Part shown: in pieces, positions 4,984-49,400 of the stretch | Position numbering within the stretch: the stretch's first letter is position 1 | Layout of the letters: every line of letters begins with the position of its first letter | Source of the DNA: a virus | IMG/VR virus record: IMGVR_UViG_3300043395_003277 | Location: 1 to 64,000 of that record | Length of the DNA stretch: 64,000 nt | Strand: one strand, 5' to 3' | Made by a program: the position numbers and the translations under genes | Notes under the pieces: model-generated | Told to the model about the DNA's origin: nothing | Database searches by the model: none | Seen by the model: only the letters and a program-made list of their open reading frames with translations

Positions 4984-5008
4984 CGTCGAGCTGGACGTTA
5001 AACGTAGC
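4984..5008 (+). ncRNA. mini-pseudoknot element, copy 1 (degenerate)
   Basis: CGTC-GA-GCTG-GACG-TTAAAC-G-TAGC. Confidence 0.5.
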
Positions 5009-5039
5009 AACTTCAACTCAACACCAACTCAACTGAATC

Positions 5040-5225
5040 ATGATTAAAGCTCAACTGTTTATCTTTGTTTTGTTCACTGCCATTACTGCTGGCGCAGCCA
5101 GTCAAGTCGGTATACATCTACTTGATAAAGCAACTGCTCGTCAGTGCCAGGCTAACGATTGGCCTGAAGAACTTGATCGCACTCACAAGGACTGGTGCGT
5201 AGACAACGGCTACAAGATTAACTGA
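5040..5225 (+). CDS. small membrane-anchored early protein
   Basis: 61 aa, N-terminal hydrophobic helix, two Cys; TCAAC-rich leader. Confidence 0.7.
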   Translation: MIKAQLFIFVLFTAITAGAASQVGIHLLDKATARQCQANDWPEELDRTHKDWCVDNGYKIN

Positions 5226-5274
5226 CTCCTGCTCTGGGGACTACGGTCCCCTCAACAGGACTCAACATCCTGTA
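5223..5274 (+). repeat. double-hairpin intergenic element A, copy 1
   Basis: TGACTCCTGCTCT-[GGGGAC TACG GTCCCC]-TCAA-CAGGA-CTCAACA-TCCTGTA. Confidence 0.85.
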
Positions 5275-5294
5275 TACATTATTACTACCACATC

Positions 5295-5492
5295 ATGGAC
5301 AAAGCATTCACTCAAGCTTGCATTGCAATGATCATGGGCACTGGCATTGGCATGCTGTTGTCTGTTGGCGGGCAGAAGATGCTTAACCAACATGCACTCA
5401 AGACATGTCCAAGTAAGTCAGGGCACCAACTTGTAATGCTCACCAGCTTTATTGGTGATGCATTCTATTGCGTTGATAAGCGTTACCTTTGA
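5295..5492 (+). CDS. small membrane-anchored early protein
   Basis: 65 aa, same architecture as 5040-5225 (TM helix, Cys pair). Confidence 0.7.
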   Translation: MDKAFTQACIAMIMGTGIGMLLSVGGQKMLNQHALKTCPSKSGHQLVMLTSFIGDAFYCVDKRYL

Positions 5493-5541
5493 CTCCTGCT
5501 CTGGGGCCACTTGGCCCCTCAACAGGACTCAACATCCTGTA
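5490..5541 (+). repeat. double-hairpin intergenic element A, copy 2
   Basis: TGACTCCTGCTCT-[GGGGCC ACTT GGCCCC]-TCAA-CAGGA-CTCAACA-TCCTGTA. Confidence 0.85.
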
Positions 5542-5561
5542 TTCACCAGCTCATCACAATC

Positions 5562-5801: not shown

Positions 5802-5856
5802 CTTCTGCACTTTCCCATCCGCAAGGATGGGTTACTGCAGGACTCAACATCCTGTA
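5799..5856 (+). repeat. double-hairpin intergenic element A, copy 3
   Basis: TGACTTCTGCACT-TT-[CCCATCC GCAA GGATGGG]-TTACTG-CAGGA-CTCAACA-TCCTGTA. Confidence 0.85.
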
Positions 5857-5879
5857 CACATTCAACTCAACTCAGCACC

Positions 5880-6310: not shown

Positions 6311-6387
6311 TGATTCCTGCACTTAACCCTTCCGTTGATGCAACCCTGTATCAGCGGTGGGTTTTCTGCAGGATTCAACATCCTGCA
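6311..6387 (+). repeat. double-hairpin intergenic element A, copy 4
   Basis: TGATTCCTGCACT-[longer hairpin CCGTTGATGCA ACCC TGTATCAGCGG]-TTTCTG-CAGGA-TTCAACA-TCCTGCA. Confidence 0.8.
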
Positions 6388-6976: not shown

Positions 6977-7060
6977 TGTCCTGAATCTGAACAATAGCTA
7001 GTGGTGGTACTTGCCACTTGGCTTACCGCCGCTAGCCTGCATACGATTCCAATTCAACCC

Positions 7061-7486
7061 ATGGAAGCTCTCTCTCAACTCGACGTTCAATCACCTGATC
7101 ACGTCTCTGTGATTACCAGGGATGGCAAGGTCACAATCTCCGTCATCAAAGACGGAACATCAGTGACTCTTGGCTTCCCACTCAAGAACATAACCTTTGA
7201 TACAACTCCCCGTCCTCCCCTCCAACAGCCAGCGCCAAAGGTAATGGCTGTTAAGAGTGTTACCAAGACTTCAAGAGATAATGCTTCGACAGGTTATCGC
7301 TTTGCTCAGAAACTCACAGAAGATAAGGTGAAAGAACTCAAGCAAATCCTTGCAGATCCAGAGCTTATGTCCAAGTTCACAAGCAAGACCAAGGCTTATT
7401 ACGAACTTGGTCGCATCTATGGTGTCAGCCATTGTCGCATCTCACAGATTGCCAATGGTAACGGCTGGAACCACGTACAGCCTTGA
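7061..7486 (+). CDS. protein with C-terminal helix-turn-helix
   Basis: KLTEDKV...ELGRIYGVSHCRISQIANGNGWNHV matches the HTH tail seen on phage HNH proteins; ATG at 7061. Confidence 0.6.
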   Translation: MEALSQLDVQSPDHVSVITRDGKVTISVIKDGTSVTLGFPLKNITFDTTPRPPLQQPAPKVMAVKSVTKTSRDNASTGYRFAQKLTEDKVKELKQILADPELMSKFTSKTKAYYELGRIYGVSHCRISQIANGNGWNHVQP

Positions 7487-7515
7487 CACCGCAGTAGTAC
7501 ATAATTACTACGACT

Positions 7516-7605
7516 GGACCTGGACACACGCGGTGTGGATTCAATGAGATCAAAGAGTTATCTTTGTATTTCTTTGGATCCGCCTGCGGCGTCCTTAAAC
7601 TGTCC
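7516..7605 (+). ncRNA. mini-pseudoknot element, copy 2, carrying a 64-nt hairpin insert
   Basis: GGAC-CT-GGACA-[insert 7527-7590 folding as one long hairpin]-GTCC-TTAAAC-TGTCC. Confidence 0.7.
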
Positions 7606-7628
7606 ATTTACTTTATTCAATTCAACTC

Positions 7629-7820
7629 ATGAACGACCTTAATTTTATTGATGAACAACGCAGTGCTGACTTGCTGGATGCAATGGCCGACATTGCAGAC
7701 GAACAAGAGCAAGCCATGCGTGAATCACTTCAATCTGAATGGTCCCTCATCGAAGATGAAGATGGAACATTCATTGGATTTACTGTAACCAACACACATG
7801 AAGACGATGACCAAACTTAA
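7629..7820 (+). CDS. acidic hypothetical protein
   Basis: 63 aa, TTCAATTCAACTC leader. Confidence 0.65.
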   Translation: MNDLNFIDEQRSADLLDAMADIADEQEQAMRESLQSEWSLIEDEDGTFIGFTVTNTHEDDDQT

Positions 7821-8238
7821 TTACACACTGAAACAAGCATGGGATGACGGTGACATCATCGTCATCCTGATCACTATCATTTCAATCATCATTACGGAGT
7901 TTGCATCATGTCTTACATCTCAGAACTCAAGAAGTTCTACCCCAAAACCTACAAAGCTCGTTACGCAATCAACGCCTACGACACCCACAAGTACTTCGAA
8001 CACGAAGATCCAACGGTCATCACCATCCACGAAACCACGCTCAACTACGGTGGGCCTGAAGAAGGTGGATGGTGGTACCAAGCAGGATACCCAGTCCGAA
8101 GCCACTGTATCTTCTCCAAGAAGCAGGCGATCCAAACCTTCATCCAGTACTTCGAAGAGTACGAAATCGAAGGCCAGCCATCTCTTGGAGATTCAACAAC
8201 TTACTTCAACATCGAACTTGGTTTCTCAAACGGACTAG
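7807..8238 (+). CDS. possible membrane-anchored Ser/Thr/Lys-rich protein overprinted on next gene
   Basis: non-overlapped 5' part encodes an Ile-rich TM helix; frame stays open across 7908-8238. Confidence 0.35.
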   Translation: MTKLNYTLKQAWDDGDIIVILITIISIIITEFASCLTSQNSRSSTPKPTKLVTQSTPTTPTSTSNTKIQRSSPSTKPRSTTVGLKKVDGGTKQDTQSEATVSSPRSRRSKPSSSTSKSTKSKASHLLEIQQLTSTSNLVSQTD

Positions 8239-8276
8239 CTAAACGCTATCCTGCGGAGCGTCCACACTACTGCTGA
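7908..8276 (+). CDS. phage protein with YGGPEEGGWWY motif
   Basis: motif recurrent in phage early proteins of unknown function. Confidence 0.75.
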   Translation: MSYISELKKFYPKTYKARYAINAYDTHKYFEHEDPTVITIHETTLNYGGPEEGGWWYQAGYPVRSHCIFSKKQAIQTFIQYFEEYEIEGQPSLGDSTTYFNIELGFSNGLAKRYPAERPHYC

Positions 8277-8294
8277 ATTCAAACTCAACGCAAC

Positions 8295-8609
8295 ATGCCT
8301 TACACCAAGGAACAATTGCAGCATCCACCAAGTTTACGTCTTACCGTAAACCAACGGAACATTTACATGTATTACTTGAACTTCCGTGCGAAACACGGAG
8401 ATCAAACATGTTATGTACCACCAATGCCAATGCAATCCAGTCGCCTGAAGGAATATTTCCGTGCGTTGGAAGCATTGGAGGAGAAGAAGTTGTTATCTGT
8501 GGATCGAAGCAATGTTCCTTACACCAAGTGGATCCTGAAAGATCCAGGGCAAGTATTGGATAGCACACAGAATGTGCCAATACATGCCAATACTTCAACA
8601 ACAACTTGA
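8295..8609 (+). CDS. putative winged-helix DNA-binding protein
   Basis: LTVNQRNIY.Y...ALEALEEKKLL pattern resembles LexA/MarR-type wHTH. Confidence 0.4.
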   Translation: MPYTKEQLQHPPSLRLTVNQRNIYMYYLNFRAKHGDQTCYVPPMPMQSSRLKEYFRALEALEEKKLLSVDRSNVPYTKWILKDPGQVLDSTQNVPIHANTSTTT

Positions 8610-8698
8610 CGATAGCGTTATATCGTTATATCCCTTGAGGTATTGTCGGATAACTACTGACCTGCCAAAACAACACACACTCAACTCAACACAAATCC

Positions 8699-8965
8699 AT
8701 GGCAACAAACTACGTCAACGAGTACACAGTACTCAACAACATCCTTGCTGAACTCAAGGAGGTTACCAAGCGTGAGAACAAGCGTCATCAAATGGATCAA
8801 CATCTAACCTTCAGCATGCTTGCATTGCTGGAAGATGAGATCATTCCTCTACTTGAGAATGAACTTGATGTTGATTACGAACCAGATGAAACAGGTGAAC
8901 CACCCATGACTGCTGATGAAATGCACAGCGCAGCTTGGAAACAACACCAAGAATTACATCGATGA
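8699..8965 (+). CDS. hypothetical protein
   Basis: 88 aa, TCAACTCAAC leader, GEPP motif. Confidence 0.7.
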   Translation: MATNYVNEYTVLNNILAELKEVTKRENKRHQMDQHLTFSMLALLEDEIIPLLENELDVDYEPDETGEPPMTADEMHSAAWKQHQELHR

Positions 8966-9220
8966 GTCGATGCAAATTTATTAATACAGCACTACGTGCA
9001 TGGCGTCAGCACCAAGAGCTTCACTCATAACGTGAGTGGTACTACTCCAGATCTGAGTAGAAGAATCACCCCCTGCACCCCCGCAAAAGTACCAGGGGGA
9101 CATCTATATTTCTATTAATAATCCTTATGTATTACTTTTATTAATACATCATTCAACCCTTTACACACCTGGTAGACTTCACCTACTTAACAAAGTACCA
9201 ACCTTCAATTCACTTCAATC

Positions 9221-9424
9221 ATGTCTGACAACATCCGTATTCCTGATTCAACTGACATGCGACGACTAGCAGCAATGCGTCTCGTTGCACAAATGAAAGA
9301 ATCAGCTGATCGAAATGGAGTTGGATTCATCGGGGGCAATAAAGCCCCCGATGGACAAAAATTTGTAATGACAAATATGGAAGATGAGGACATGCAATGT
9401 ATGCTTCCGGAGGAACTTCAGTAA
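9221..9424 (+). CDS. hypothetical protein
   Basis: 67 aa, stop overlaps next start. Confidence 0.65.
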   Translation: MSDNIRIPDSTDMRRLAAMRLVAQMKESADRNGVGFIGGNKAPDGQKFVMTNMEDEDMQCMLPEELQ

Positions 9425-9762
9425 TGACTAATCAACATCCAATCACTCCACCACCGGAGCTGGTGAAGCAGTGGATAGAAAATTGGTATCGCAGCAAAGT
9501 TAAGCACACCGAAATCTATTCTTTCCTCGCCGCCTGTGGCGCTCAATGGGGCGCCGACCAGGAGCTGGAGGCGTGCTGTCATGAAGTCCAGAACATGTAT
9601 AGCGGTGGCAGCAGACTCCGCGCCGCCCGCCGCCCCAAGCCACCGAGCTTGAAGGAGCAGGCGCTGGAAGAGTTGAATCTCACTGCAGATCCAAATGGTG
9701 CAGAATTGTCCCGAACTCAAGTTGACCTTATCCGCCGCGCACTGGAGTCAATCAATGACTAA
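9424..9762 (+). CDS. GADQELEACC/RRPKPPSLKEQA family protein, paralog 1
   Basis: shares two conserved blocks with 9755-10093 and 17260-17628. Confidence 0.75.
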   Translation: MTNQHPITPPPELVKQWIENWYRSKVKHTEIYSFLAACGAQWGADQELEACCHEVQNMYSGGSRLRAARRPKPPSLKEQALEELNLTADPNGAELSRTQVDLIRRALESIND

Positions 9763-10093
9763 TCAACAACACCCGATCACCCCGCCGTATGAGCTGATTG
9801 AAGAGTGGATCGAACAGTTCAAAGGAGATCATCCTATCTACATTGCCACACAGGCAGCTCAATGGGGCGCAGACCAAGAGCTGGAGGCGTGCTGTGAGTG
9901 GTTTCAAGAGTTTTACAAAACTGAGTCGTGGGTCAAGCATGACTTAAAACACTTCCGCAACGCCAGGCGCCCCAAACCGCCGAGCTTAAAGCAGCAGGCG
10001 CTGATGGCAATTGACACCGCTGTTGCTGATAATCGCTTATCAGCAGATGTTGCCAACGTTGTCCGCCAAGCACTGGAGCAAATTAATGACTGA
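9755..10093 (+). CDS. GADQELEACC family protein, paralog 2
   Basis: tandem paralog of the preceding gene. Confidence 0.75.
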   Translation: MTNQQHPITPPYELIEEWIEQFKGDHPIYIATQAAQWGADQELEACCEWFQEFYKTESWVKHDLKHFRNARRPKPPSLKQQALMAIDTAVADNRLSADVANVVRQALEQIND

Positions 10094-10283
10094 CAAATCA
10101 CCAATCAATTTCGACAAGACAATTGCAGGATTTAACATCACTGAACATGGTGTTAAGTCCTACACTAAATCGGTTCAGCTAGGGCCTATCCAGTTTACGG
10201 TCAATGCCCGTAAGTCTGGATTGCTTGGATCAATTAGTATTCCAGGCACTGGCATTAGCAAACGAAACATTAAATTATTCTAA
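10086..10283 (+). CDS. DUF4236-like small protein
   Basis: KSVQLGP...SIPGTGISKR pattern. Confidence 0.5.
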   Translation: MTDKSPINFDKTIAGFNITEHGVKSYTKSVQLGPIQFTVNARKSGLLGSISIPGTGISKRNIKLF

Positions 10284-10323
10284 AGATCTGAGCATCAACA
10301 ACTGTTGTGTAAGTCCCAGATCT
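10284..10323 (+). ncRNA. TAAGTCC internal-loop hairpin element B, copy 1
   Basis: AGATCTG-AG-[CATCAAC AACT GTTGTG]-TAAGTCC-CAGATCT directly after a stop codon. Confidence 0.5.
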
Positions 10324-10345
10324 ATCAACTCAACTCAACTTAACC

Positions 10346-10546
10346 ATGTACGAAACCACACTGTCACTATTTGATCGTGTCAATATTGCAAGCTGTGCAG
10401 CTGAACGTGCACGCAACAATTTGATGAACGATGATCGATTCACTGGCGAGTACCAGACTGTCAAGTGCTGGACCAACTACCGATGCTATATCGGCAAACG
10501 TATCAACGGTGAACAGTTCCATTATGTGGAACCTAATGGTATTTGA
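10346..10546 (+). CDS. hypothetical protein
   Basis: 66 aa, (TCAAC)3 leader. Confidence 0.7.
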   Translation: MYETTLSLFDRVNIASCAAERARNNLMNDDRFTGEYQTVKCWTNYRCYIGKRINGEQFHYVEPNGI

Positions 10547-10565
10547 TCTGACCTAACTTAACACC

Positions 10566-10835
10566 ATGACTACAACACATTGCTCAGTTCTCGCAATCGA
10601 GGACACTTTCATCCAAGGAAACAATGTCACAGTTACTGCAGTTGTTGAAGACATGCGCCTGCTTTATCGGGCGTCATATCGAGACCCTGAAGAATGGGCT
10701 CCTGCACTGTGCACAGCAAGTTTCGAATTGGATGACGATGAACAAATCCCTACTGATGAAGATGGCTTCTGCTGTTATCTGCATCACCGGGATTTGGAAT
10801 GGCAACTTGTCGACGTAAGTGATTACGACGACTGA
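10566..10835 (+). CDS. acidic hypothetical protein
   Basis: 89 aa ORF. Confidence 0.7.
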   Translation: MTTTHCSVLAIEDTFIQGNNVTVTAVVEDMRLLYRASYRDPEEWAPALCTASFELDDDEQIPTDEDGFCCYLHHRDLEWQLVDVSDYDD

Positions 10836-10844
10836 TTAGTTGCA

Positions 10845-10871
10845 CGTCCTGAGCATGACGCTAAACTGCTC
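10845..10871 (+). ncRNA. mini-pseudoknot element, copy 3
   Basis: CGTC-CT-GAGCA-T-GACG-CTAAAC-TGCTC. Confidence 0.75.
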
Positions 10872-10909
10872 ACACCACACTACGAACTTAACTCCGAACC
10901 AACCATGCA

Positions 10910-11452
10910 ATGAAACCAAATCCACTTCCACCTCTTGATTATTTGCAACAGATGTTTTATTTAGATGCAACATCTCCGAGTGGTTTGCGCTGGCGTAAAG
11001 CGCCAAGCGCTTGGACCAAAGTAAATTCTGTTGCTGGTATTCAACGCACCAAAGATCATTACTGGCGTGTTCGTTGGAAGTACCAAGGTAAAGCAATGGA
11101 TTATATGGCTCATCGCATTGTATATGCACTGCAACATGGCCTCGATCCAGGGAATATGTTTGTAGATCATATGCACAATGATAAAGACAACAACAAGCCA
11201 TTGCGATTAGCTACTAAATTGCAAAACTCACACAATCGTAATGGTCGCAAAAATACAAGCAGCATTTACAAAGGTGTTTGTTTAATTAAAGCGACTGGTC
11301 GATGGCGTGCATGCATTCGTATTGATAAACAATTCAAACACATTGGTGTGTACGCCACGCAAGAAGAAGCGGCTTTGGCTTACAACGAGGCCGCTTTGCT
11401 ACATTTTGGTGAGTTTGCTCGCCTCAATCAAATCAACTCAACCCAAAACTAA
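10910..11452 (+). CDS. HNH homing endonuclease with AP2 domain
   Basis: AHRIVY...VDH..N..DN...LR; C-terminal YKGV...WRACI...HIGVY.T.EEAALAYN. Confidence 0.9.
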   Translation: MKPNPLPPLDYLQQMFYLDATSPSGLRWRKAPSAWTKVNSVAGIQRTKDHYWRVRWKYQGKAMDYMAHRIVYALQHGLDPGNMFVDHMHNDKDNNKPLRLATKLQNSHNRNGRKNTSSIYKGVCLIKATGRWRACIRIDKQFKHIGVYATQEEAALAYNEAALLHFGEFARLNQINSTQN

Positions 11453-11454
11453 TC

Positions 11455-13191
11455 ATGCAATTCGCTCTTTCCTCCAACCTGCAAACTGAACTGCTTGCTT
11501 ATGACCCCAAGCTCAAGGCATTGGTAGCAGAGCAGACCAAGCTCAACAAGAAGCCTGGTGCTAAGCCCAAGTATCCACTTGGTAACATCAATGACTTGAT
11601 CCCAGCTGATGTTGTTGCACCTTCACTGCAGCAACAAGCGATTGATCACATCAACTCTCAGCTGGCACCAGAGCGTCATCAAATCTTTACACACATCAAA
11701 GGTCAAGACATCAAAGTCAGTGCAATCATCTATCACTTTGAGCAATGCTGGGTAGCAGCATGGCTGCCGCCCAAAGGTAAGGAATCTGAGTATGTCTACG
11801 GTTATACCGTGGCATACAAGAATACTACCAGCGCACTCAAAGTTGTTACACATAAGATTGCACGTCAACGAGAGCAATATCAGCTCAAGAACTATGGACG
11901 GTCCGAAGTTTATTACTACCAGAAACTTGTAACCATCAAAGACATTCAAGATGGTTTAGATACATCTGAATGGCGACTACCTGGTATTACAAATTACGGT
12001 GCTAAGCCCAGGTTTATTAGTGCAACTATTGCCAGATTTGAACAAGAGCTGCGCACAACACTTCCCACATGGGAAGACTCACGCACCAGTATGTTCGACC
12101 GCATCAAATGCAAATGCATTGGCGAAGTTGTACTAGAAACCCAACAAGTGTACAAGCGTCATCTGGAGACAACGAATAAGTTACAGACATGGCAACCATC
12201 AGCTGCAACGTATCTTGAGATGACAGAACATTATGTTAACCAAGATAGAGGATTGTATTCACAGTACAAATATAGCAATCGAATCAAACATATTATTGAT
12301 ACACCATACTTCCGCAAGTGGATTCAAGCACAATGTGATCTATCATCTGCCGCATATAACTCGGCTGATAACCAACAGCGTGGCACTATAACGCAACCGT
12401 GGCGACGCATTGGTTTATTGTTCAATGCAATCAATTCTATTCATTACATTTGGCCTGATACACCAATCGATTACTTCCAGAACAACATTGATACCATGCT
12501 CACCATGGAAATGGATCGAGCAGGGATGCACATCAGTGTTGTTTACTGGTTGCGTCAACACATGCCTGTAGCTTCTTACTTTGCCATTGCACGTAAAGCA
12601 ATGGAAGAGAAGCTGCAAAATGATTCATCACATTATATGAATATTGAATATGGCATTAAGCGTTATAACTGCTACGAATGGAATGACACCATCTCCATGC
12701 TCAGCCGTATTGCTGCAGAAAGTGAAAACGAAACGCTAACTCTTGCACCGCCACGTCGTTGGCGCATCACTGAGTTCCATGATTATGTACAAGCAGAAAC
12801 ATGGAAGATTCGTAATAAGAACGAATCACTGCCTCAAGACTTGTTCCCTGAACCCATCAAGATTCATTATAACGACAAAGCATGGTCATTGTTCCAGCCA
12901 CTCGACACTCATCAGCTAGCAGCCTGGGGTCAGGCCGTACGTAACTGCGTCGGCTCTGCCAACAGCTACGCTGAAGGCGTCCGCAAGAAGCAACACTTCA
13001 TTGTTTTGTGTCTGCTGGATGGCAAGCCGCACTTCACCATTCAACTACGTGTTGAGCATGGTGTGATGTCTGTTGACCAAATCAAGGGCTATGCCAATTC
13101 CAGCCTCAACGACAGGGATCGTGAAGAATACACAGCTGTATTCAAGGAAGCATTGCGCATCCGTGATGAGCAGCTAAGCTCTAAGAGCTGA
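11455..13191 (+). CDS. PcfJ-like domain protein
   Basis: C-terminal FHD...L..WGQAVRNCVG...Y...FTIQL...QIKGYAN signature. Confidence 0.75.
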   Translation: MQFALSSNLQTELLAYDPKLKALVAEQTKLNKKPGAKPKYPLGNINDLIPADVVAPSLQQQAIDHINSQLAPERHQIFTHIKGQDIKVSAIIYHFEQCWVAAWLPPKGKESEYVYGYTVAYKNTTSALKVVTHKIARQREQYQLKNYGRSEVYYYQKLVTIKDIQDGLDTSEWRLPGITNYGAKPRFISATIARFEQELRTTLPTWEDSRTSMFDRIKCKCIGEVVLETQQVYKRHLETTNKLQTWQPSAATYLEMTEHYVNQDRGLYSQYKYSNRIKHIIDTPYFRKWIQAQCDLSSAAYNSADNQQRGTITQPWRRIGLLFNAINSIHYIWPDTPIDYFQNNIDTMLTMEMDRAGMHISVVYWLRQHMPVASYFAIARKAMEEKLQNDSSHYMNIEYGIKRYNCYEWNDTISMLSRIAAESENETLTLAPPRRWRITEFHDYVQAETWKIRNKNESLPQDLFPEPIKIHYNDKAWSLFQPLDTHQLAAWGQAVRNCVGSANSYAEGVRKKQHFIVLCLLDGKPHFTIQLRVEHGVMSVDQIKGYANSSLNDRDREEYTAVFKEALRIRDEQLSSKS

Positions 13192-13203
13192 AGCCACAGC
13201 AAG

Positions 13204-13241
13204 GGAAGGAGGCTGTCCTTGTTTTAGCCTTCTTCCTTTTT
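13204..13241 (+). terminator. intrinsic terminator
   Basis: GGAAGGAGGCT/AGCCTTCTTCC stem then T-tract. Confidence 0.75.
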
Positions 13242-13252
13242 ATTTTATTAAA

Positions 13253-13795
13253 ATGCGAAAACCACTTCCTCTTCCGGATTTAGAATTTTTAAATACTATT
13301 TTAAAGATTGATCCAACAAGTCCTTCTGGTCTTAGATGGAAAACAAATAGAAGAACTCATATTAAACCAGGAGATATTGCTGGTACTAATGATGGCAAAA
13401 AAGGTTGGTATGTCTATATAACTTTTAATTCGAATAGTAAACGTTATAAAACACATAGAATTGTGTATTTTATGGTAACTAAAACTGATCCAGGAGAATA
13501 CGATGTTGATCACATTGATGGAAATACCAGTAATAATCATATTGATAATTTAAGATTGGCTACGCGTTCTCAAAACTCAAGTAATAGGAACAAAGGCAAG
13601 AATAATTCATCTGGATTTAAAGGCGTCTATCAATTTAGGAATTCTTCAAAATGGTTTGCGCAAATTATGTGTAATTACAAAACAATTTATTTAGGAACTT
13701 TTACAACAAAAGAAGAAGCCGTAAATGCTTATAATGAGGCTTCAATTAGATTACATAAAGAGTTTAGTCGTCATAAAAAGAATTATGACAAATGA
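13253..13795 (+). CDS. HNH homing endonuclease with AP2 domain
   Basis: THRIVY...VDHIDGNTSNNHIDNLR; SGFKGV...W.AQI...YLGTF; visibly AT-richer than flanks. Confidence 0.92.
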   Translation: MRKPLPLPDLEFLNTILKIDPTSPSGLRWKTNRRTHIKPGDIAGTNDGKKGWYVYITFNSNSKRYKTHRIVYFMVTKTDPGEYDVDHIDGNTSNNHIDNLRLATRSQNSSNRNKGKNNSSGFKGVYQFRNSSKWFAQIMCNYKTIYLGTFTTKEEAVNAYNEASIRLHKEFSRHKKNYDK

Positions 13796-14024
13796 GTTGT
13801 CAGCTAAAAGTTTTAGTTACACTGATGAACAACTGCTTGCCATGGCAATGGCAAACATTGGTGAATACATCCATGACAATTCACCGCAGTACATTCTAAT
13901 AGAAGATGATCCTCGTAATGAGGATGATTACGATACATGGGAGGTAGGAATGGAACCTATACCAGGTGATCAAACCTGGAAGTCAACTGCTATTGATGTT
14001 GAATCATCTGAAGTCAATGACTGA
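13785..14024 (+). CDS. acidic hypothetical protein
   Basis: ATG at 13785. Confidence 0.6.
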   Translation: MTNELSAKSFSYTDEQLLAMAMANIGEYIHDNSPQYILIEDDPRNEDDYDTWEVGMEPIPGDQTWKSTAIDVESSEVND

Positions 14025-14457
14025 ATTCAAACCAATCCCATCTTGTCCTGGCTATCAAGTATCTGCTTGTGGCCAAATTAAAGGACCTAAGAAATTATTA
14101 AAGCTTTATCAAAACAAGAATGGTTATTTAATGTTTAAACCAGGTCGCAATAAATCTTCATACTATGTGCATAAAGCTGTAGCAGAAACTTGGAATATTA
14201 AAGGATCTGGTTCCTGGATCAATCACATTGATCATAACAAAACCAACAATCAAGTTTTTAATCTTGAGTGGTGTACAGCTAAACACAATCATGATGAGTG
14301 TGTAAAGTTTTTAGGTAAACATCCATCCCAAAAACTTACACCTGAAGACTATGAACTTGTATTTCAAATGTATACAGAAGGTTTTAGTCAACGTGATATA
14401 GCCAATTCAATTGGTTGTACCCAGACTCACGTTTGGCGTATATTAAAACAGTTTTAG
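14017..14457 (+). CDS. NUMOD4-type HNH endonuclease with C-terminal HTH
   Basis: PGYQVS..GQI; VHKAVA...INHIDHNKTNNQVFNLEW; SQRDIANSIGCTQTHV. Confidence 0.88.
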   Translation: MTEFKPIPSCPGYQVSACGQIKGPKKLLKLYQNKNGYLMFKPGRNKSSYYVHKAVAETWNIKGSGSWINHIDHNKTNNQVFNLEWCTAKHNHDECVKFLGKHPSQKLTPEDYELVFQMYTEGFSQRDIANSIGCTQTHVWRILKQF

Positions 14458-14481
14458 CACTGAGCCATTACCCCATGACCA

Positions 14482-14525
14482 CACTTGGCGTCGCACATCA
14501 GTTGATGTGAGTATAAGTCCAAGTG
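14482..14525 (+). ncRNA. TAAGTCC internal-loop hairpin element B, copy 2
   Basis: CACTT-GG-CGTCG-[CACATC AGTT GATGTG]-AGTA-TAAGTCC-AAGTG, ending 1 nt before tRNA-Leu. Confidence 0.45.
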
Positions 14526-14526
14526 A

Positions 14527-14602
14527 GCCCGAGTAGCCCAGCGGAAGAGGCAAGCGACTTAAAATCGCTCCAGCGTGAGTTCGAATCTCACCTCGGGTAC
14601 CA
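14527..14602 (+). tRNA. trnL: tRNA-Leu(TAA) with short variable loop and encoded CCA
   Basis: acceptor GCCCGAG/CTCGGGT, anticodon arm AGCGA-CTTAAAA-TCGCT, T arm GTGAG-TTCGAAT-CTCAC, ACCA end. Confidence 0.92.
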
Positions 14603-14625
14603 ACCTACACATTCAACTCAACACC

Positions 14626-14988
14626 ATGTCTATCTTCTCCTGCTTCAAACACATCATTCCTGAGTTCCATGCATACTCAGATGATGAGCAGCGCTACAAC
14701 CTTGGCGCCACATGGACGGCACCTGACGGTCTTCGTGATTATCATAACGTTGAGCTGCGGTACGTCCATAACTCAGAGCGCCTTGCTCTCCAGGGGGACC
14801 CGCAACCCGATGGCACATGGCGCTATGTAGAACCAAACGGTAACGTCCACACCATATCAGCGGAACGCGCTAAGCAATTCATGGAACAAACCCAGTCCCA
14901 TGCGACCATCATGATGGCCATGCTTGGCAAGTTACAAGATGCTGGCGTCTTGGATGCTGCTGTGGACACCACTGCTCAACCCGCCTAG
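14626..14988 (+). CDS. hypothetical protein
   Basis: ATG at 14626 after TTCAACTCAACACC leader. Confidence 0.75.
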   Translation: MSIFSCFKHIIPEFHAYSDDEQRYNLGATWTAPDGLRDYHNVELRYVHNSERLALQGDPQPDGTWRYVEPNGNVHTISAERAKQFMEQTQSHATIMMAMLGKLQDAGVLDAAVDTTAQPA

Positions 14989-15007
14989 TCTTAGTGCGCT
15001 AACACCC

Positions 15008-15034
15008 AGCCCCGGCTTTTGCTGGGGCTTTATT
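15008..15034 (+). terminator. intrinsic terminator-like hairpin
   Basis: AGCCCCGGC-TTTT-GCTGGGGCT-TTATT. Confidence 0.65.
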
Positions 15035-15035
15035 C

Positions 15036-15371
15036 ATGCCTGAACCAATTGATTTAAATCTTATTGATCAAATCATTAGTCACATCCCACACTGGACGTG
15101 GCCTGTTGTTAAAGATGAGCTCATTGAAATCATTGTCGATTCAATGACATCTGATATCCTTGAACGCTTAACAGGTTCACCAACTGATTTTGATAAGGCA
15201 GAACAAATACTGCATTGTCATTACATCATGCCTGGCATGGAACGTGACTTGCTTATTGATTCTACAAAAATCCTTGGTATAGATTGCGTTGTCTATACTT
15301 TGGATTCCTTGAAGCTTGATACCCTTGAACAATCTACTGATACAACACCTTATTCAGTTAATCCTGATTAA
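15036..15371 (+). CDS. hypothetical protein
   Basis: 111-aa ORF coupled to next gene. Confidence 0.7.
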   Translation: MPEPIDLNLIDQIISHIPHWTWPVVKDELIEIIVDSMTSDILERLTGSPTDFDKAEQILHCHYIMPGMERDLLIDSTKILGIDCVVYTLDSLKLDTLEQSTDTTPYSVNPD

Positions 15372-15736
15372 TGGCCTTTCCAAGGGTTATTCTTCCTGAT
15401 TGTCCTGCTTGTAAACAACCTGGTCTACGTGTTATCGAAAGTCGCAAGACTGGTTTATCAACACGTAGACGTAAAGGTTGTGAATGTTGTGGACACCGCT
15501 TTACAACACATGAAGTGTCTGCTGACTTCTTTGAACAAGCCAAACAAAACCAATGGCTTGTCGAACAATTGCAGTCATTACTTGGTAACTCATCTGCAAC
15601 AACTCAGCTACCACCAATAGTCACAGCAGAATCCAAGTGTTCTGACTGCGTTCACAATCAAAACGATCTATGTGTATTTGGGTTTCCTGAATACGACACT
15701 GACGAATCATTCGATTGCAATCACTTCGAATCATGA
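15371..15736 (+). CDS. NrdR-like zinc-ribbon protein lacking the ATP cone
   Basis: CPAC....RVIESR.....RRRKGCECCGHRFTTHE matches NrdR N-terminus; second Cys cluster at C-terminus. Confidence 0.7.
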   Translation: MAFPRVILPDCPACKQPGLRVIESRKTGLSTRRRKGCECCGHRFTTHEVSADFFEQAKQNQWLVEQLQSLLGNSSATTQLPPIVTAESKCSDCVHNQNDLCVFGFPEYDTDESFDCNHFES

Positions 15737-16032
15737 CCAAACCTCAACGTAAATTCGCTATTGGTGATCGTGTTGCTGAACGTCCCAAGCATCATGGTTT
15801 ATTTGCTGTACGCAAAGAAGTACAGGATGCTATTGCTAAATACAGATCTCAACGCTATGGAACAATTGTTAATATCAAATACAAAGCAGATGCCAGTGGC
15901 CGTAAGCGTTCCTTCCTGGTGATCCAGTGGGACCATTTGACAACGCCTTGTGAACATTCACAGATGCGTATCTGTCATATGGATGATTTTGAACGTATCA
16001 TGAACGAATCCTGCGCTGCCATTGGTGAATGA
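15733..16032 (+). CDS. hypothetical protein (SH3-like FxIGDRV start)
   Basis: ATGA overlap; KFAIGDRV...GTI...IQWD pattern. Confidence 0.6.
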   Translation: MTKPQRKFAIGDRVAERPKHHGLFAVRKEVQDAIAKYRSQRYGTIVNIKYKADASGRKRSFLVIQWDHLTTPCEHSQMRICHMDDFERIMNESCAAIGE

Positions 16033-16033
16033 T

Positions 16034-16678
16034 ATGACTGTTGATTTAATTTGGGCTACACCCAATGCAGAAGAATTAATTACCAAAATGGCACGGGTCA
16101 GTGCTCCAAAGAATCAAGACAATATGGAGACAGCACCACGCCTGCTCCGTTACTTGATTGAGCACTGCCACTTCTCTCCTTATGAGATGGCAAACATGTG
16201 TGTTGAAATCAACACAACACGTGCTATATCAGCACAGATCATTCGCCATCGTTCATTCAGTTTCCAGGAATTCAGTCAGCGCTACGCTGATGTCAACGAG
16301 CTGGGCTCTGCTGTTATCCCACACCTGCGTCGTCAAGACGTAAAGAACAGACAGAACAGTATCGATGACTTTCACCCAGAGGAGATCGGTAGTTTCTACC
16401 GCCGCATCAGTCAACTCTTTGAAGACTCGGAACATCTCTATCGCGAGATGGTCAGTCATGGTATCGCAAAAGAGTGCGCCAGGAACATCCTGCCGATGAG
16501 CACCCAGACTAAGATCTATATGAACGGTTCACTCCGTTCGTGGATTCATTACCTACAACTTCGTTGTGACCCAAGTACACAAATCGAACACAGACACATC
16601 GCAGAAGAAATCAAACGAATCTTCTGCCAACAATTCCCAGTCATTGCAGAAGCCGCCTTCCAATCAGAAGGCGGCTGA
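16034..16678 (+). CDS. thyX: flavin-dependent thymidylate synthase
   Basis: H.SPYE; QIIRHRSFSFQEFSQRY (RHRX7S); KECARNILP; TQIEHR. Confidence 0.97.
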   Translation: MTVDLIWATPNAEELITKMARVSAPKNQDNMETAPRLLRYLIEHCHFSPYEMANMCVEINTTRAISAQIIRHRSFSFQEFSQRYADVNELGSAVIPHLRRQDVKNRQNSIDDFHPEEIGSFYRRISQLFEDSEHLYREMVSHGIAKECARNILPMSTQTKIYMNGSLRSWIHYLQLRCDPSTQIEHRHIAEEIKRIFCQQFPVIAEAAFQSEGG

Positions 16679-16685
16679 TCAAACG

Positions 16686-16805
16686 TCAGACCAGCAATTC
16701 AGTCGGTTGTTTTTTTAATTCCTTGACAGCACGTTTGGACTCCACATCCTGACGTGTTTTCTTTTTCTTCTGGTTAACCAGATAAACAATCAATGCTTGA
16801 TTCAT
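16686..16805 (-). CDS. 39-aa basic peptide (not in ORF track)
   Basis: MNQALIVYLVNQKKKKTRQDVESKRAVKELKKQPTELLV; ATGA-coupled to the DUF4278 gene with GGAGG upstream. Confidence 0.6.
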   Translation of the reverse strand: MNQALIVYLVNQKKKKTRQDVESKRAVKELKKQPTELLV

Positions 16806-16954
16806 TTGATTTGACCTCCAGTGACCGATGGATCGTAGCAGATGTTACGGTATTTCAGCCGTAACCATGGGCGGTGGGCTAAGTTCCACCAGTCCCTGTC
16901 CTTTTTGACCTGCTCGTCTTTATCGTATTTGCAACCACGGTACGTTAATTGCAT
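16802..16954 (-). CDS. DUF4278-family small protein (not in ORF track)
   Basis: MQLTYRGCKY...LRLKYRNICY, the twin L.YRG..Y motif of cyanobacterial DUF4278. Confidence 0.75.
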   Translation of the reverse strand: MQLTYRGCKYDKDEQVKKDRDWWNLAHRPWLRLKYRNICYDPSVTGGQIK

Positions 16955-16962
16955 AGCATTCT

Positions 16963-16986
16963 GTATCTATTGATACGGAAAGTATA
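16963..16986 (-). promoter_or_regulatory. NtcA box overlapping the predicted start site of a -10 promoter
   Basis: GTA-TCTATTGA-TAC (GTA-N8-TAC) at 16963-16976; minus-strand TATACT at 16986-16981. Confidence 0.65.
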
Positions 16987-17027
16987 TGTCAATTGATGTA
17001 TTTAATGTCGTTCATTGTGTAACACAA

Positions 17028-17267: not shown

Positions 17268-17628
17268 ACAAATCAATGGTGACAAGTTGTTTGTCATTGA
17301 CCATCACCCCGCAATCCCACCTTCTGATCAACTAAAGAAGTGGGAAGATCAATGGTTTGATGAAGAAGAGCATCCTGATGTTTTATTGATCCAAGCATTC
17401 CAGGCAGGGGCTGACCAAGAACTGGAGGCGTGCTGCGTTGAAGTTTCCTTCTGGGTAACCAAAGGTATGGCAGAGAAGATTCACAAAATCCGACGCCCCA
17501 AGCCGCCGAGCTTGAAGGAGCAGGCGCATGATGCTTACTGGGCTCTTCGTCACGGCTCTGACGGAGATAGAAACGAAAGCCAAAATTGGGACACCATCCG
17601 CCGCGCACTGGAGCAACTCGATGACTGA
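17260..17628 (+). CDS. GADQELEACC family protein, paralog 3
   Basis: GADQELEACC and RRPKPPSLKEQA blocks, C-terminal IRRALEQL. Confidence 0.75.
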   Translation: MTKQINGDKLFVIDHHPAIPPSDQLKKWEDQWFDEEEHPDVLLIQAFQAGADQELEACCVEVSFWVTKGMAEKIHKIRRPKPPSLKEQAHDAYWALRHGSDGDRNESQNWDTIRRALEQLDD

Positions 17629-18024: not shown

Positions 18025-18051
18025 CGTCCTGAACATGACGTTAAACTGTTT
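18025..18051 (+). ncRNA. mini-pseudoknot element, copy 4
   Basis: CGTC-CT-GAACA-T-GACG-TTAAAC-TGTTT. Confidence 0.75.
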
Positions 18052-20936: not shown

Positions 20937-20964
20937 CGTCCTCAGGTACGACGTTAAACTGCCT
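20937..20964 (+). ncRNA. mini-pseudoknot element, copy 5
   Basis: CGTC-CTC-AGGTA-C-GACG-TTAAAC-TGCCT. Confidence 0.75.
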
Positions 20965-22029: not shown

Positions 22030-22056
22030 CGTCCTGGGATGACGTTAAACTCATCC
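22030..22056 (+). ncRNA. mini-pseudoknot element, copy 6
   Basis: CGTC-CT-GGGA-T-GACG-TTAAAC-TCATCC (bulged P2). Confidence 0.65.
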
Positions 22057-22077
22057 ACTGTTCACTCTGAACAAACC

Positions 22078-25919: not shown

Positions 25920-25946
25920 AGTCCTGGTCACGACTTTAAACTGACC
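25920..25946 (+). ncRNA. mini-pseudoknot element, copy 7
   Basis: AGTC-CT-GGTCA-C-GACT-TTAAAC-TGACC. Confidence 0.78.
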
Positions 25947-34459: not shown

Positions 34460-34462
34460 GTA

Positions 34463-34538
34463 TCGGAGCGCTCAGATTTGAACTGAGATTATTCCTGTCC
34501 CCAAAACAGGTGCCATGACCAAGTTAGGCGACGCTCCG
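34463..34538 (-). tRNA. trnP: tRNA-Pro(TGG)
   Basis: CGGAGCG/CGCTCCG acceptor, CCTGT-TTTGGGG-ACAGG anticodon arm, CTCAG-TTCAAAT-CTGAG T arm. Confidence 0.9.
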
Positions 34539-34999
34539 AAACTGTTTACGTACTTTAACACCTTTTCTTCAATTAAAGCGCGATGTCTTGAGTGCCAAAT
34601 CCGATGGTGGTTTGGACATAAAGGTATTAAATTCAAAGGACTGTTATCTTTATTGTTTCCGTTTAAATGGTGCACCTCAATAATTAAATTAAAACCGCAA
34701 AGGCAACATTCTTTTTTGTGATATGCAAAACAAATTGTTCTGTAATTATTGCCTTGATAATTTGGATTGCATGTGCCTTTTCTAAAAAAACTGTTGTAAC
34801 AACTTGTGCTACATGTTTTTTGTTCAGGATGTTTTAAAACGCCGCACTTCGGGCAAGGCGTCCCAAAAGCTGGGTTTTGCGTGCAAGTTTTTAAATGACG
34901 AATAATAAAAGGTTTTTTAAATTCTTTTTTGCAAAAAATACAGCACACTAAAGGATCTTTGCGCCCTCGCAAAAGATTGTTTAAAGAATTTTTATGCAC
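34472..34999 (-). CDS. HNH endonuclease within tRNA cluster
   Basis: CCLCG...EVHHLNGNNKDNSPLNLIPLCPNHH; N-terminal Cys fingers; AT-rich; frame ends inside tRNA-Pro. Confidence 0.85.
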   Translation of the reverse strand: MHKNSLNNLLRGRKDPLVCCIFCKKEFKKPFIIRHLKTCTQNPAFGTPCPKCGVLKHPEQKTCSTSCYNSFFRKGTCNPNYQGNNYRTICFAYHKKECCLCGFNLIIEVHHLNGNNKDNSPLNLIPLCPNHHRIWHSRHRALIEEKVLKYVNSFGASPNLVMAPVLGTGIISVQI

Positions 35000-49360: not shown

Positions 49361-49400
49361 TGCTGTTACTCTTTGTCTTTGTTAATTTTAACTCAAAAAA

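Follow-up and report, generated by a model that had tools for sequence, protein, structure and literature searches.

A hairpin inserted in loop 2 of a probable member of a widespread phage pseudoknot family

The plus strand of the IMG/VR virus record IMGVR_UViG_3300043395_003277 carries, at positions 7516-7605, an RNA element that very probably belongs to a widespread family of phage pseudoknots and in which an inherited hairpin replaces the usual one-nucleotide loop 2. The stretch analysed here (the window, 64,000 nucleotides [nt]) is the first 64 kb of this record, which is 85,449 bp long and has direct terminal repeats. By DNA, the nearest isolates to the window are Synechococcus phages such as S-EIVl. 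In what follows, G000 denotes the window genome and L-numbers denote collected viral loci. The family element is a 27-nt H-type pseudoknot with a stem 1 of 4 base pairs (bp), a CU loop 1, a stem 2 of 5 bp, a 1-nt loop 2 and a YUAAAC loop 3. A natural three-helix variant of this unpublished, widespread phage pseudoknot is new. The sequence comparisons given below show that the core fold exists and covaries, that the insert is inherited and that loop 2 tolerates additions. The whole explanation, in which a family knot with an inherited loop-2 hairpin has a barrier role between genes, is favoured on balance.

The element reads GGAC, CT and GGACA, then 64 nt, then GTCC, TTAAAC and TGTCC, which is the layout of an H-type pseudoknot (Table 1). 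A sequence-only reading of this DNA had described the two halves as separated by 7527-7590, and the sequence reads exactly so. That reading is partly supported, and its observation is right in every particular. Family members have a stem 1 of 3-4 bp with a closing C-G pair beside loop 1, for which the window copy has GGAC/GUCC. The family's CU and stem 2 (G-N-N-C-A/U-G-N-N-C) appear as CU and GGACA/UGUCC, and its loop 3 (YUAAAC) as the UUAAAC at 7595-7600. Like the family, the window copy is intergenic, on the sense strand, behind a stop codon and ahead of a G-poor leader. It departs from the family in loop 2, which has 64 nt rather than 1 (sometimes 2). The match is regarded as beyond chance, since no conserved loop letter (C-CU-G..CA and G...UUAAAC-UG) is missing.

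All sister copies in the window are intergenic and on the plus strand, and several lie closely behind genes of the replication module. Stem 1 is GGAC/GUCC at 7516 and CGUC/GACG or AGUC/GACU in the sisters; stem 2 is GGACA/UGUCC at 7516 and GAGCA/UGCUC, GAACA/UGUUU or GGUCA/UGACC in the sisters. Both core stems thus differ pairwise from those of the sisters, which bears out the compensatory changes that had been claimed for them.

The family was collected from IMG/VR with the pattern CCTGNNCANGNNNYTAAACTG, which fixes the loop letters and two stem-2 pairs and has at least 120 matches. Among the matches listed in viral contigs, all six pairs left free by the pattern are formed in 93 of 128 and at least five of them in 119 of 128. 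An alignment (A1) of the 105 distinct 27-nt sites among the matches listed has 94.6% of its cells paired, against 75.4% after shuffling (a value of 94.6% is reached by 0 of 500 shuffles) and 27-42% when the partners are slid. It contains 190 two-sided changes. The loop letters, including CU, are preset by the search pattern, so that A1 overstates their conservation. Copies that deviate from CU or from the stem-2 letters are those at 20937 and 22030 in the window and that of Staphylococcus phage phiJB. The fold belongs to the sense strand, because G.U outnumbers A.C at the free cells of A1 (43 to 8).

When one copy was compared by BLAST with isolated phages, 83 Staphylococcus records proved to carry the element. 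Further matches are in phages of Vibrio, Paracoccus, Arthrobacter, Lactobacillus, Moorella, Nostoc and Microcystis and in Synechococcus phages S-EIVl and S-H35. The copy of Mycobacterium phage Labelle has AAAAAC as its loop 3. In phiJB (L441:1490-1530), the knot has a variant stem 2, is followed by a U-run and lies between a small open reading frame (ORF) and the scaffold gene, behind which comes the major capsid gene; the record annotates a "putative promoter P5R" here. When the pattern was run on one genome per prokaryotic species, 23 of 119 sites were perfect and the remainder look like chance. On these matches, the family is real and widespread, and it is present also in contigs of many bacterial phyla.

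No knot in the window has a match at the gathering score in Rfam 15, which is reached there only by a tRNA. With E-values up to 10, no Rfam 15 model (preQ1-I [RF00522] and Pistol [RF02679] included) matches over 7440-7680 or over three canonical copies. Literature searches found no description of the phage UAAAC knot. In the portions of text available to us, neither a study of 10,006 candidate viral RNAs (PMC10690425) nor the Minerva preprint describes it, although it may sit unnamed in such catalogues. Of the small phage RNA structures for which neither a catalogue entry nor a paper was located, this family is one of the most widespread.

The insert folds on itself, as the sequence-only reading had stated. 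Taken alone, it forms a 26-bp hairpin with a GUUA loop at a minimum free energy (MFE) of -34.1 kcal/mol, against -13.5 +/- 2.8 kcal/mol for 200 shuffles (z -7.46; 0 shuffles as good). In a partition function over 7470-7640, the basal stem of the insert has a probability of 0.99-1.0. The same calculation gives a probability of about 0 to CACCGC/GCGGUG, a pairing that had been named as a possible dominant alternative; by eye, this pairing is mismatched in L124 and has no upstream partner in the type B inserts described below. The two ends of the hairpin would be neighbours, each linked to the knot through 2 unpaired nt. Because the helix ends are adjacent and the links are 2 nt long, the hairpin can replace the 1-nt linker and project sideways, and the knot and insert together would make a three-helix junction.

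The junction that holds the insert was surveyed in 57 loci (39 distinct upstream regions), in each case ahead of a homologue of the downstream gene. A plain knot with a 1-nt loop is present in 16 of the 39 regions, a different hairpin motif in 14 and a variant of that motif in two more, while nothing recognisable is present in 6. The homologous insert was found in one version, present in five loci. At the same junction, L176 has stems identical to those of the window copy and a single U where the insert stands. A pattern drawn on the base of the insert matched nine contigs; with G000, these give five distinct sequences in 10 contigs, all at the same junction. Two hairpins are found among them, type A of 64 nt (G000 and the L124 group) and type B of 67 nt (L129, L445 and L447). 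The basal seven pairs are common to both types and the distal parts are wholly different. The insert versions fold at -34.1, -27.2, -32.1 and -31.1 kcal/mol.

In the alignment of the insert-bearing copies (A2), each of the five versions retains all nine knot pairs, two pairs in each stem have two-sided changes, and 98.8% of cells are paired, against 34-55% with the partners slid. L445 and L129 have the same type B hairpin (1 difference in 67 nt) and stem 1 sequences of GGAC/GUCC and CGUC/GACG, respectively; therefore stem 1 covaries over a 67-nt gap. Between the inserts of G000 and L124, 7 of 64 positions are different (89% identity over 64 nt), whereas the flanking upstream proteins have ~55% identity. 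Set against the fold, these differences include one two-sided change (7547/7571, A-U to G-C) and two changes of G.U to A-U, the rest being two breaks and one bulge change. As neither hairpin type occurs elsewhere in G000 or in any collected locus, the insert is no dispersed repeat. In a tree of the upstream protein, built from 25 of 28 rows (3 fragments of <130 amino acids [aa] were dropped), the L124 and L129 lineages group together (96/95) and G000 stands on a long, unreliable branch. Because of this branch, and because the motif labels are imperfect, the tree speaks neither for nor against a single origin of the insert. The insert probably originated among a few related cyanophages. Judged from these orthologues, it is inherited, and its helix has been kept while the distal sequence was replaced. 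The insert variants are the cheapest structural evidence for the knot, with stems 1 and 2 still covarying when they are 64-67 nt apart.

A second dispersed motif was noticed in the relatives. It consists of CCUGGG-C-N, a hairpin of 12 to ~40 nt (several types) and GUAAGU-CCCAGG, and has 49 distinct sites, ~25-35 nt before start codons, in L133-L188 and others (e.g., L155:1681, 2430 and 3427); none is in G000. This motif stands at the very junction where other relatives have the knot, and the 5' letters CCUGGGCA are common to it and the knot. The GUAAGU hairpin family has no Rfam match.

Loop 2 was examined as an insertion site in two ways. A full-signature scan of ~1.4 Mb of collected DNA, with loop 2 allowed up to 200 nt, found 130 sites with a 1-nt loop and 5 with a loop of >10 nt, against 2 in the reversed control. 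Three of the five long-loop sites (the window copy, L124 and L129) are the same junction, L118 joins two adjacent copies and L083 is taken as chance. In the other search, stem 2 was set to its commonest sequence and loop 2 to 2-32 nt, where numbers of sites are to be read as "at least", or to 33-63 nt, where the 12 loci are complete. A 2-nt loop 2 is common (at least 25 distinct sites). For a loop 2 of 6-63 nt, 9 of the 21 distinct matches listed have all three free stem-1 pairs, where ~1.1 would be expected. Two of these nine are tandem-copy artefacts (L309 and L314) and one is an ambiguous loop-2/loop-3 insert (L313). The other six are clean loop-2 inserts of 15 to 60 nt (L298, L194, L261, L222, L317 and L316), three of which fold (-10.4, -19.3 and -2.5 kcal/mol). 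The homologues with other inserts at this position that the sequence-only reading had proposed to look for were thus found, as two types at the window junction and as unrelated hairpins in other phages. The single loop 2 letter among the 105 sites is U in 56, A in 33, C in 14 and G in 2. When long inserts were sought by structure only, with the loop letters relaxed, the result was at chance level (50, against 40 in reversed sequence), and the conclusions on long inserts use full-signature matches only. On these matches, loop-2 inserts are rare but recurrent and independent. In L192:2748 and L193 (minus strand), stem 1 closes after a 1-nt loop 2 and a ~20-nt hairpin-forming stretch stands before UUAAAC; here the insert seems to sit in loop 3, not in loop 2.

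Stems 1 and 2 of the window copy have identical sequences (GGAC/GUCC twice), and because of this a nested long hairpin is equally possible in that copy. The rival explanation is that the window copy is one long nested hairpin with no pseudoknot, in which CU and UUAAACU form an asymmetric internal loop and in which the insert has enabled a closed inner helix, turning the knot into a rod or a knot/rod switch. RNAfold returns the nested form as the MFE structure of 7480-7635 (-54.0 kcal/mol), with 7516-7519/7602-7605 (pair probabilities of 0.90-0.91) and 7522-7525/7591-7594 (0.997-0.999) stacked beneath the insert helix, and by this model the window copy may not fold as a knot at all. The nested competitor exists only with the insert, which supplies a proper loop for the inner helix; without it, judging from L176, this helix would close a 2-nt loop. 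The L124 version permits the nested form too, and relatives hold the nested CCUGGG-CA-(hairpin)-GUAAGU-CCCAGG in a similar layout at the same junction. However, a nearest-neighbour energy model cannot score pseudoknots, which makes the comparison of knot and nested form one-sided, and for that reason the nested MFE is no argument against the knot. Across the five insert versions, the nested pairs fill 75% and 65% of cells, are intact only in G000 and L124 and show no covariation, whereas the type B orthologues L129, L445 and L447 break the nested pairs and keep 100% of the knot pairs; only these three exclude the nested form. All of the knot-family loop letters are unchanged in the window copy, although a plain rod would not need them. 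A nested rod at 7516-7605 is considered rather unlikely.

On the evidence of the orthologues, it is settled that the knot can accommodate the insert and is the fold under selection. The fold adopted by the window copy itself is not decided by these sequences. The earlier claim that this natural variant supports the fold therefore stands by way of L129, L445 and L447 and falls for the window copy taken alone, which should not serve as proof of a knot because its identical stems allow the nested fold.

The insert most likely leaves the role of the knot intact and adds a long double-stranded arm to it. Two unrelated distal sequences that keep a helix of ~26 pairs suggest selection for double-strandedness. 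The job of the insert could be that of a site for RNase III or another protein binding double-stranded RNA (dsRNA), that of a folding clamp, or none; a dsRNA-binder site, a folding clamp and a tolerated passenger fit the kept helix equally well. The last of these would be a neutral or selfish palindromic insertion at a spot where it does the knot no harm, with no function of its own. Its rarity, its limitation to one junction in one phage group and the free variation of loop 2 in the family are what such a passenger would leave. The lack of any other copy of either hairpin type in G000 and the collected loci speaks against a dispersed mobile repeat, however, and pairing has been kept through substitutions and distal replacement. 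A purely neutral insert is thus thought unlikely, though well within consideration.

In the sequence-only reading, the knot was a scaffold and the insert its cargo, a putative RNase III site at which early polycistronic RNA would be cut. Substrates of RNase III have about two turns of mostly continuous dsRNA, and the early genes of phage T7 are separated by intergenic RNase III processing hairpins. The insert resembles these in being a long, imperfect hairpin between genes of a polycistronic early transcript, of about two helical turns or more. Its 26 pairs, which are interrupted by single nucleotides only, exceed the length wanted (~two turns, roughly 20 bp or more). The stable helix kept by two unrelated distal sequences fits selection for double-strandedness and not for sequence. 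The kinds of change between G000 and L124 and the 89% identity of the insert beside a protein of ~55% identity are further points on this side. Unlike the T7 hairpins, the window hairpin sits inside a pseudoknot loop and is a predicted substrate only. Most relatives do without an insert at the same junction, and any stable helix could persist as a neutral passenger in a selected element. An RNase III cargo is therefore regarded as an unlikely explanation.

A more speculative proposal, to which little weight is given, is that the insert makes the knot a two-state or cleavable boundary element that toggles between a barrier knot and a nested rod in G000 and the L124 group. The layout of the rod (an outer helix, a 2-nt/7-nt internal loop with UAAA and an inner hairpin) would mirror that of the GUAAGU family. 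The insert-bearing copy might then stand, as a living intermediate, between two RNA architectures with the same job, perhaps one split by RNase III inside the knot. It is very improbable that the element acts as DNA, with TAAACT as the -10 box of a promoter: TAAACT matches TAnnnT and the phiJB record places its putative promoter at a knot, but a promoter explains neither the covariation of interleaved stems nor the one-strand excess of G.U, there is no conserved -35 box upstream, stop codons lie 5-9 nt away, the sigma-70 scan is blank at 7516 and 10845, and the insert puts 64 nt between the halves in the window copy.

The knots of the family are placed closely behind genes. With the stop codon taken from the closest upstream ORF of 60 aa or more, the stop-to-knot distance peaks at 5 nt (21 sites), followed by 6 nt (11) and 7 nt (10); it is 5-9 nt in 51 of 165 sites and 0-4 nt in only three. 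A position 5-9 nt past the stop codon is approximately the edge of the ribosome (the end of its mRNA channel) when the stop is in the A site, so the knot stands as near to the stop as it can without being unwound. The ~10 bases behind the knot are G-poor family-wide (G makes up ~5-9% of the first 8 positions). A general terminator role is unlikely because a T-run follows the knot in only 37 of 173 sites, and a scan for sigma-70 promoters and terminators found nothing at the window copies. The orientation of the flanking ORFs does not separate a role within a 3' untranslated region (UTR) from one within a 5'-UTR. A riboswitch was considered and rejected, as the element is present in multiple copies before unrelated genes and has a variable loop 2.

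Knots also sit in phage tRNA arrays. A knot lies 7-11 nt 5' of a tRNA start at five sites found with ARAGORN and in L006 with Rfam (loci including L028, L216, L247 and L248), and in L075:1418-1516 the knot directly adjoins the 3' end of a tRNA. L248 also has a match to transfer-messenger RNA (71.8 bits). On the minus strand of L388, a contig labelled as a Polynucleobacter metagenome-assembled genome, there are two type III hammerheads ~215 nt apart (7271-7325 and 7541-7595). The second of these (41.2 bits, E-value: 1.2e-7, below the gathering score) begins in the last 2 nt of a knot, and its cleavage site, by alignment reading, is ~6 nt past the knot. Self-cleavage in L388 would leave the knot ~6 nt from a 3' end. 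This adjacency is the sole ribozyme hint for the knot.

This placement can be accommodated in a model in which the element would be transcribed with the genes between which it is placed. The family would serve as a compact mechanical barrier or punctuation at cistron boundaries, just outside the footprint of the terminating ribosome, and would stop exonucleases, and perhaps sliding ribosomes, at defined points beside processing sites. Such a barrier could guard the upstream 3' end after cleavage at the neighbouring processing site, guard the downstream RNA against a 5'-3' exonuclease or block ribosomes. Bacterial RNase J1 is blocked in vitro by a flaviviral exonuclease-resistant RNA (xrRNA). 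A barrier function is suggested by the placement and by a likeness to coremin/xrRNA-C (see below), and it is put forward tentatively.

Besides the nested fold, several points weigh against this account. The stop-to-knot spacing of the window copy is 29 nt, outside 5-9 nt and far from the family mode of 5. Among loci that were not chosen for inserts, 134 sites have a 1-nt loop and long inserts are credible only at the window junction. Nothing like the second hairpin (hp2) of coremin follows the knot, 7606-7628 being G-free and unpaired and the corresponding tract of the family G-poor. The function is argued only from placement and resemblance, and a query of public sequencing runs with 7001-17000 listed no RNA run. 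Several hosts of knot-bearing phages, for example Vibrio, are not known to have RNase J, and because of this a block to 5'-3' exonucleases would not be the universal role.

The closest known relative is coremin, or xrRNA-C. It is known from beet necrotic yellow vein virus and other plant and fungal RNA viruses and has a Watson-Crick variant, xrRNA-WCC (PMC10520033, PMC10321173). In the parts of these two papers available to us, it is a 20-nt motif composed of a short hairpin (hp1), its loop and a spacer, for which an H-type knot of the size of that in beet western yellows virus (BWYV) was proposed. Loops of 6, 7 or 8 nt are tolerated; the motif halts Xrn1 as well as scanning ribosomes and promotes -1 frameshifting, and hp2 is needed directly past the spacer for Xrn1 resistance (PMC10520033, PMC10321173). 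The available part of PMC11702639 concerns a different xrRNA class, which was set aside. Coremin as printed in these sources and the phage knot have in common a GUC/GAC hairpin with a loop starting with C, a following G-UUAAAC-U and an intergenic placement. GUC, C, GAC and GUUAAACU are common to the printed motif and the window copies at 10845 and 18025, and the letters UUAAAC are the start of the conserved coremin spacer. The two differ in other respects. The printed coremin loop is YGAD or YGNNAD and its contact with the spacer is non-canonical or of 3 bp, whereas the phage knot has an 8-nt "loop" (CU, the 5-nt strand of the 5-bp stem 2 and 1 nt) and a Watson-Crick stem 2. The corresponding letters are C-U-G-G-A-C-A plus 64 nt in the window copy and CUGAGCAU and similar in the sisters. 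From the coremin spacer G-UUAAAC-UAC, the window copy has UUAAAC-U, while CUAC, which is essential in coremin, is replaced by the canonically pairing C-UGUCC. Its stem 1 is GGAC/GUCC and not GUC/GAC, and the available text describes no long in-loop helix for coremin. Coremin hosts are eukaryotes with Xrn1, whereas the phage knot is found in bacteria. Because of the differences in YGAD, CUAC, hp2 and host kingdom, the phage knot is filed as working like coremin and not as a member of its class.

Luteovirus frameshift pseudoknots of the BWYV type are compact H-type knots of under 30 nt. Like the phage knot, they begin their short loop 1 with C, join their stems through one nucleotide and have an A-rich loop 3 fit for contacts in the minor groove. 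The phage knots differ in lying after stop codons and not in overlapping reading frames. Frameshift stimulators have a slippery heptamer (X XXY YYZ) 5-8 nt upstream, and none precedes any window copy; the sequence upstream of 7516 is ..UACUACGACU, and the ORF there ended at 7486. The P1-pseudoknot core of Pistol and the preQ1-I aptamer are likewise H-type knots in which an A-rich strand follows stem 1, a likeness that extends to the phage knot. The latter has no P2/P3, cleavage-site module or conserved loop-2 C, and unlike a riboswitch it is present in multiple copies ahead of unrelated genes. The gene 32 leader of phages T4 and T2 contains a pseudoknot that is a single-copy autoregulatory site for one protein. 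It too is an H-type knot of phage mRNA 5' of an unstructured leader, and the copy at 20937 precedes an SSB gene. However, its sequence and loop lengths are different, and the phage knots described here are dispersed behind many genes.

The junction loop would point outward and is permissive, which makes it a place at which tags, aptamers or crystallisation modules might be grafted. The window copy and L176 provide a matched natural pair at the same junction, with identical stems, with and without the insert.

Table 1. Positions of the element at 7516-7605, its surroundings, its sister copies and other features of the window
Feature	Position	Strand	Remarks
Upstream ORF, 140 aa	7064..7486	+	stop codon at 7484-7486; knot begins 29 nt later
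Small hairpin GUAGUA-CAUAAU-UACUAC between stop codon and knot	7494..7511	+	in MFE fold
Stem 1, 5' strand, GGAC	7516..7519	+	partner 7591-7594; covaries with CGUC/GACG in insert-bearing orthologues
Loop 1, CU	7520..7521	+	CU in 5 of 7 window copies; differs in 4984 and 20937
Stem 2, 5' strand, GGACA	7522..7526	+	partner 7601-7605; covaries in alignments A1 and A2
64-nt insert replacing the usual 1-nt loop 2	7527..7590	+	26-bp hairpin
Insert pairs, runs of 5 and 10	7529-7533/7584-7588, 7535-7544/7574-7583	+	
Insert pairs, runs of 5 and 6	7546-7550/7568-7572, 7551-7556/7561-7566	+	loop 7557-7560
Stem 1, 3' strand, GUCC	7591..7594	+	partner 7516-7519
Loop 3, UUAAAC	7595..7600	+	family signature
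Stem 2, 3' strand, UGUCC	7601..7605	+	partner 7522-7526
G-free leader to ATG of next gene	7606..7628	+	unpaired in fold
Downstream gene, 63 aa	7629-7820	+	
Weak variant sister copy	4984..5010	+	stem 1 and UUAAAC kept, stem 2 short; by eye; membership uncertain
Canonical sister copy, CGUC-CU-GAGCA-U-GACG-CUAAAC-UGCUC	10845..10871	+	9 nt past stop, ahead of HNH endonuclease gene
Canonical sister copy	18025..18051	+	
Sister copy with 3-nt loop 1	20937..20964	+	7 nt past DNA polymerase stop, ahead of SSB gene
Variant sister copy without loop 2, stem 2 of 4 bp	22030..22057	+	5 nt past stop; by eye
Canonical sister copy	25920..25946	+	5 nt past stop codon
Repeated early-region hairpin CAGGAYUCAACAUCCUG	5223-5278, 5490-5545, 5838-5862, 6360-6385		repeat families D13, D18, D20
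Three paralogous coding stretches	9541-9760, 9857-10091, 17398-17626		families D8-D11, 69-95% identical over 30-50 nt blocks
Dense degenerate repeats, spacings multiples of 3	49100-51000		families D1-D7, D12
tRNA-Leu(UAA)	14527-14602	+	
tRNA-Pro(UGG)	34462-34539	minus	

The ORF upstream of the knot has no Pfam family, and none was found for any of the four flanking ORFs. It has a weak PHROG match to the C-terminal part of an HNH endonuclease (E-value: 3e-4) and homologues in 9 viral contigs (48-55% identity). A minus-strand ORF at 7425-7607 was rejected as a gene, since stops interrupt it in L124. The palindromic core UAGUAC..GUACUA of the small hairpin ahead of the knot recurs at the same junction in relatives, ahead of either motif type; it may act as a hairpin in the RNA or as a DNA palindrome to which a protein binds.

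Other repeats of the window are listed in Table 1. The CAGGAYUCAACAUCCUG element is intergenic and has a GC hairpin ahead of it in two copies. The three paralogous coding stretches suggest a small duplicated gene family of the early region. The stretch of degenerate repeats looks like a repetitive structural protein, perhaps fibre-like and possibly encoded on the minus strand.

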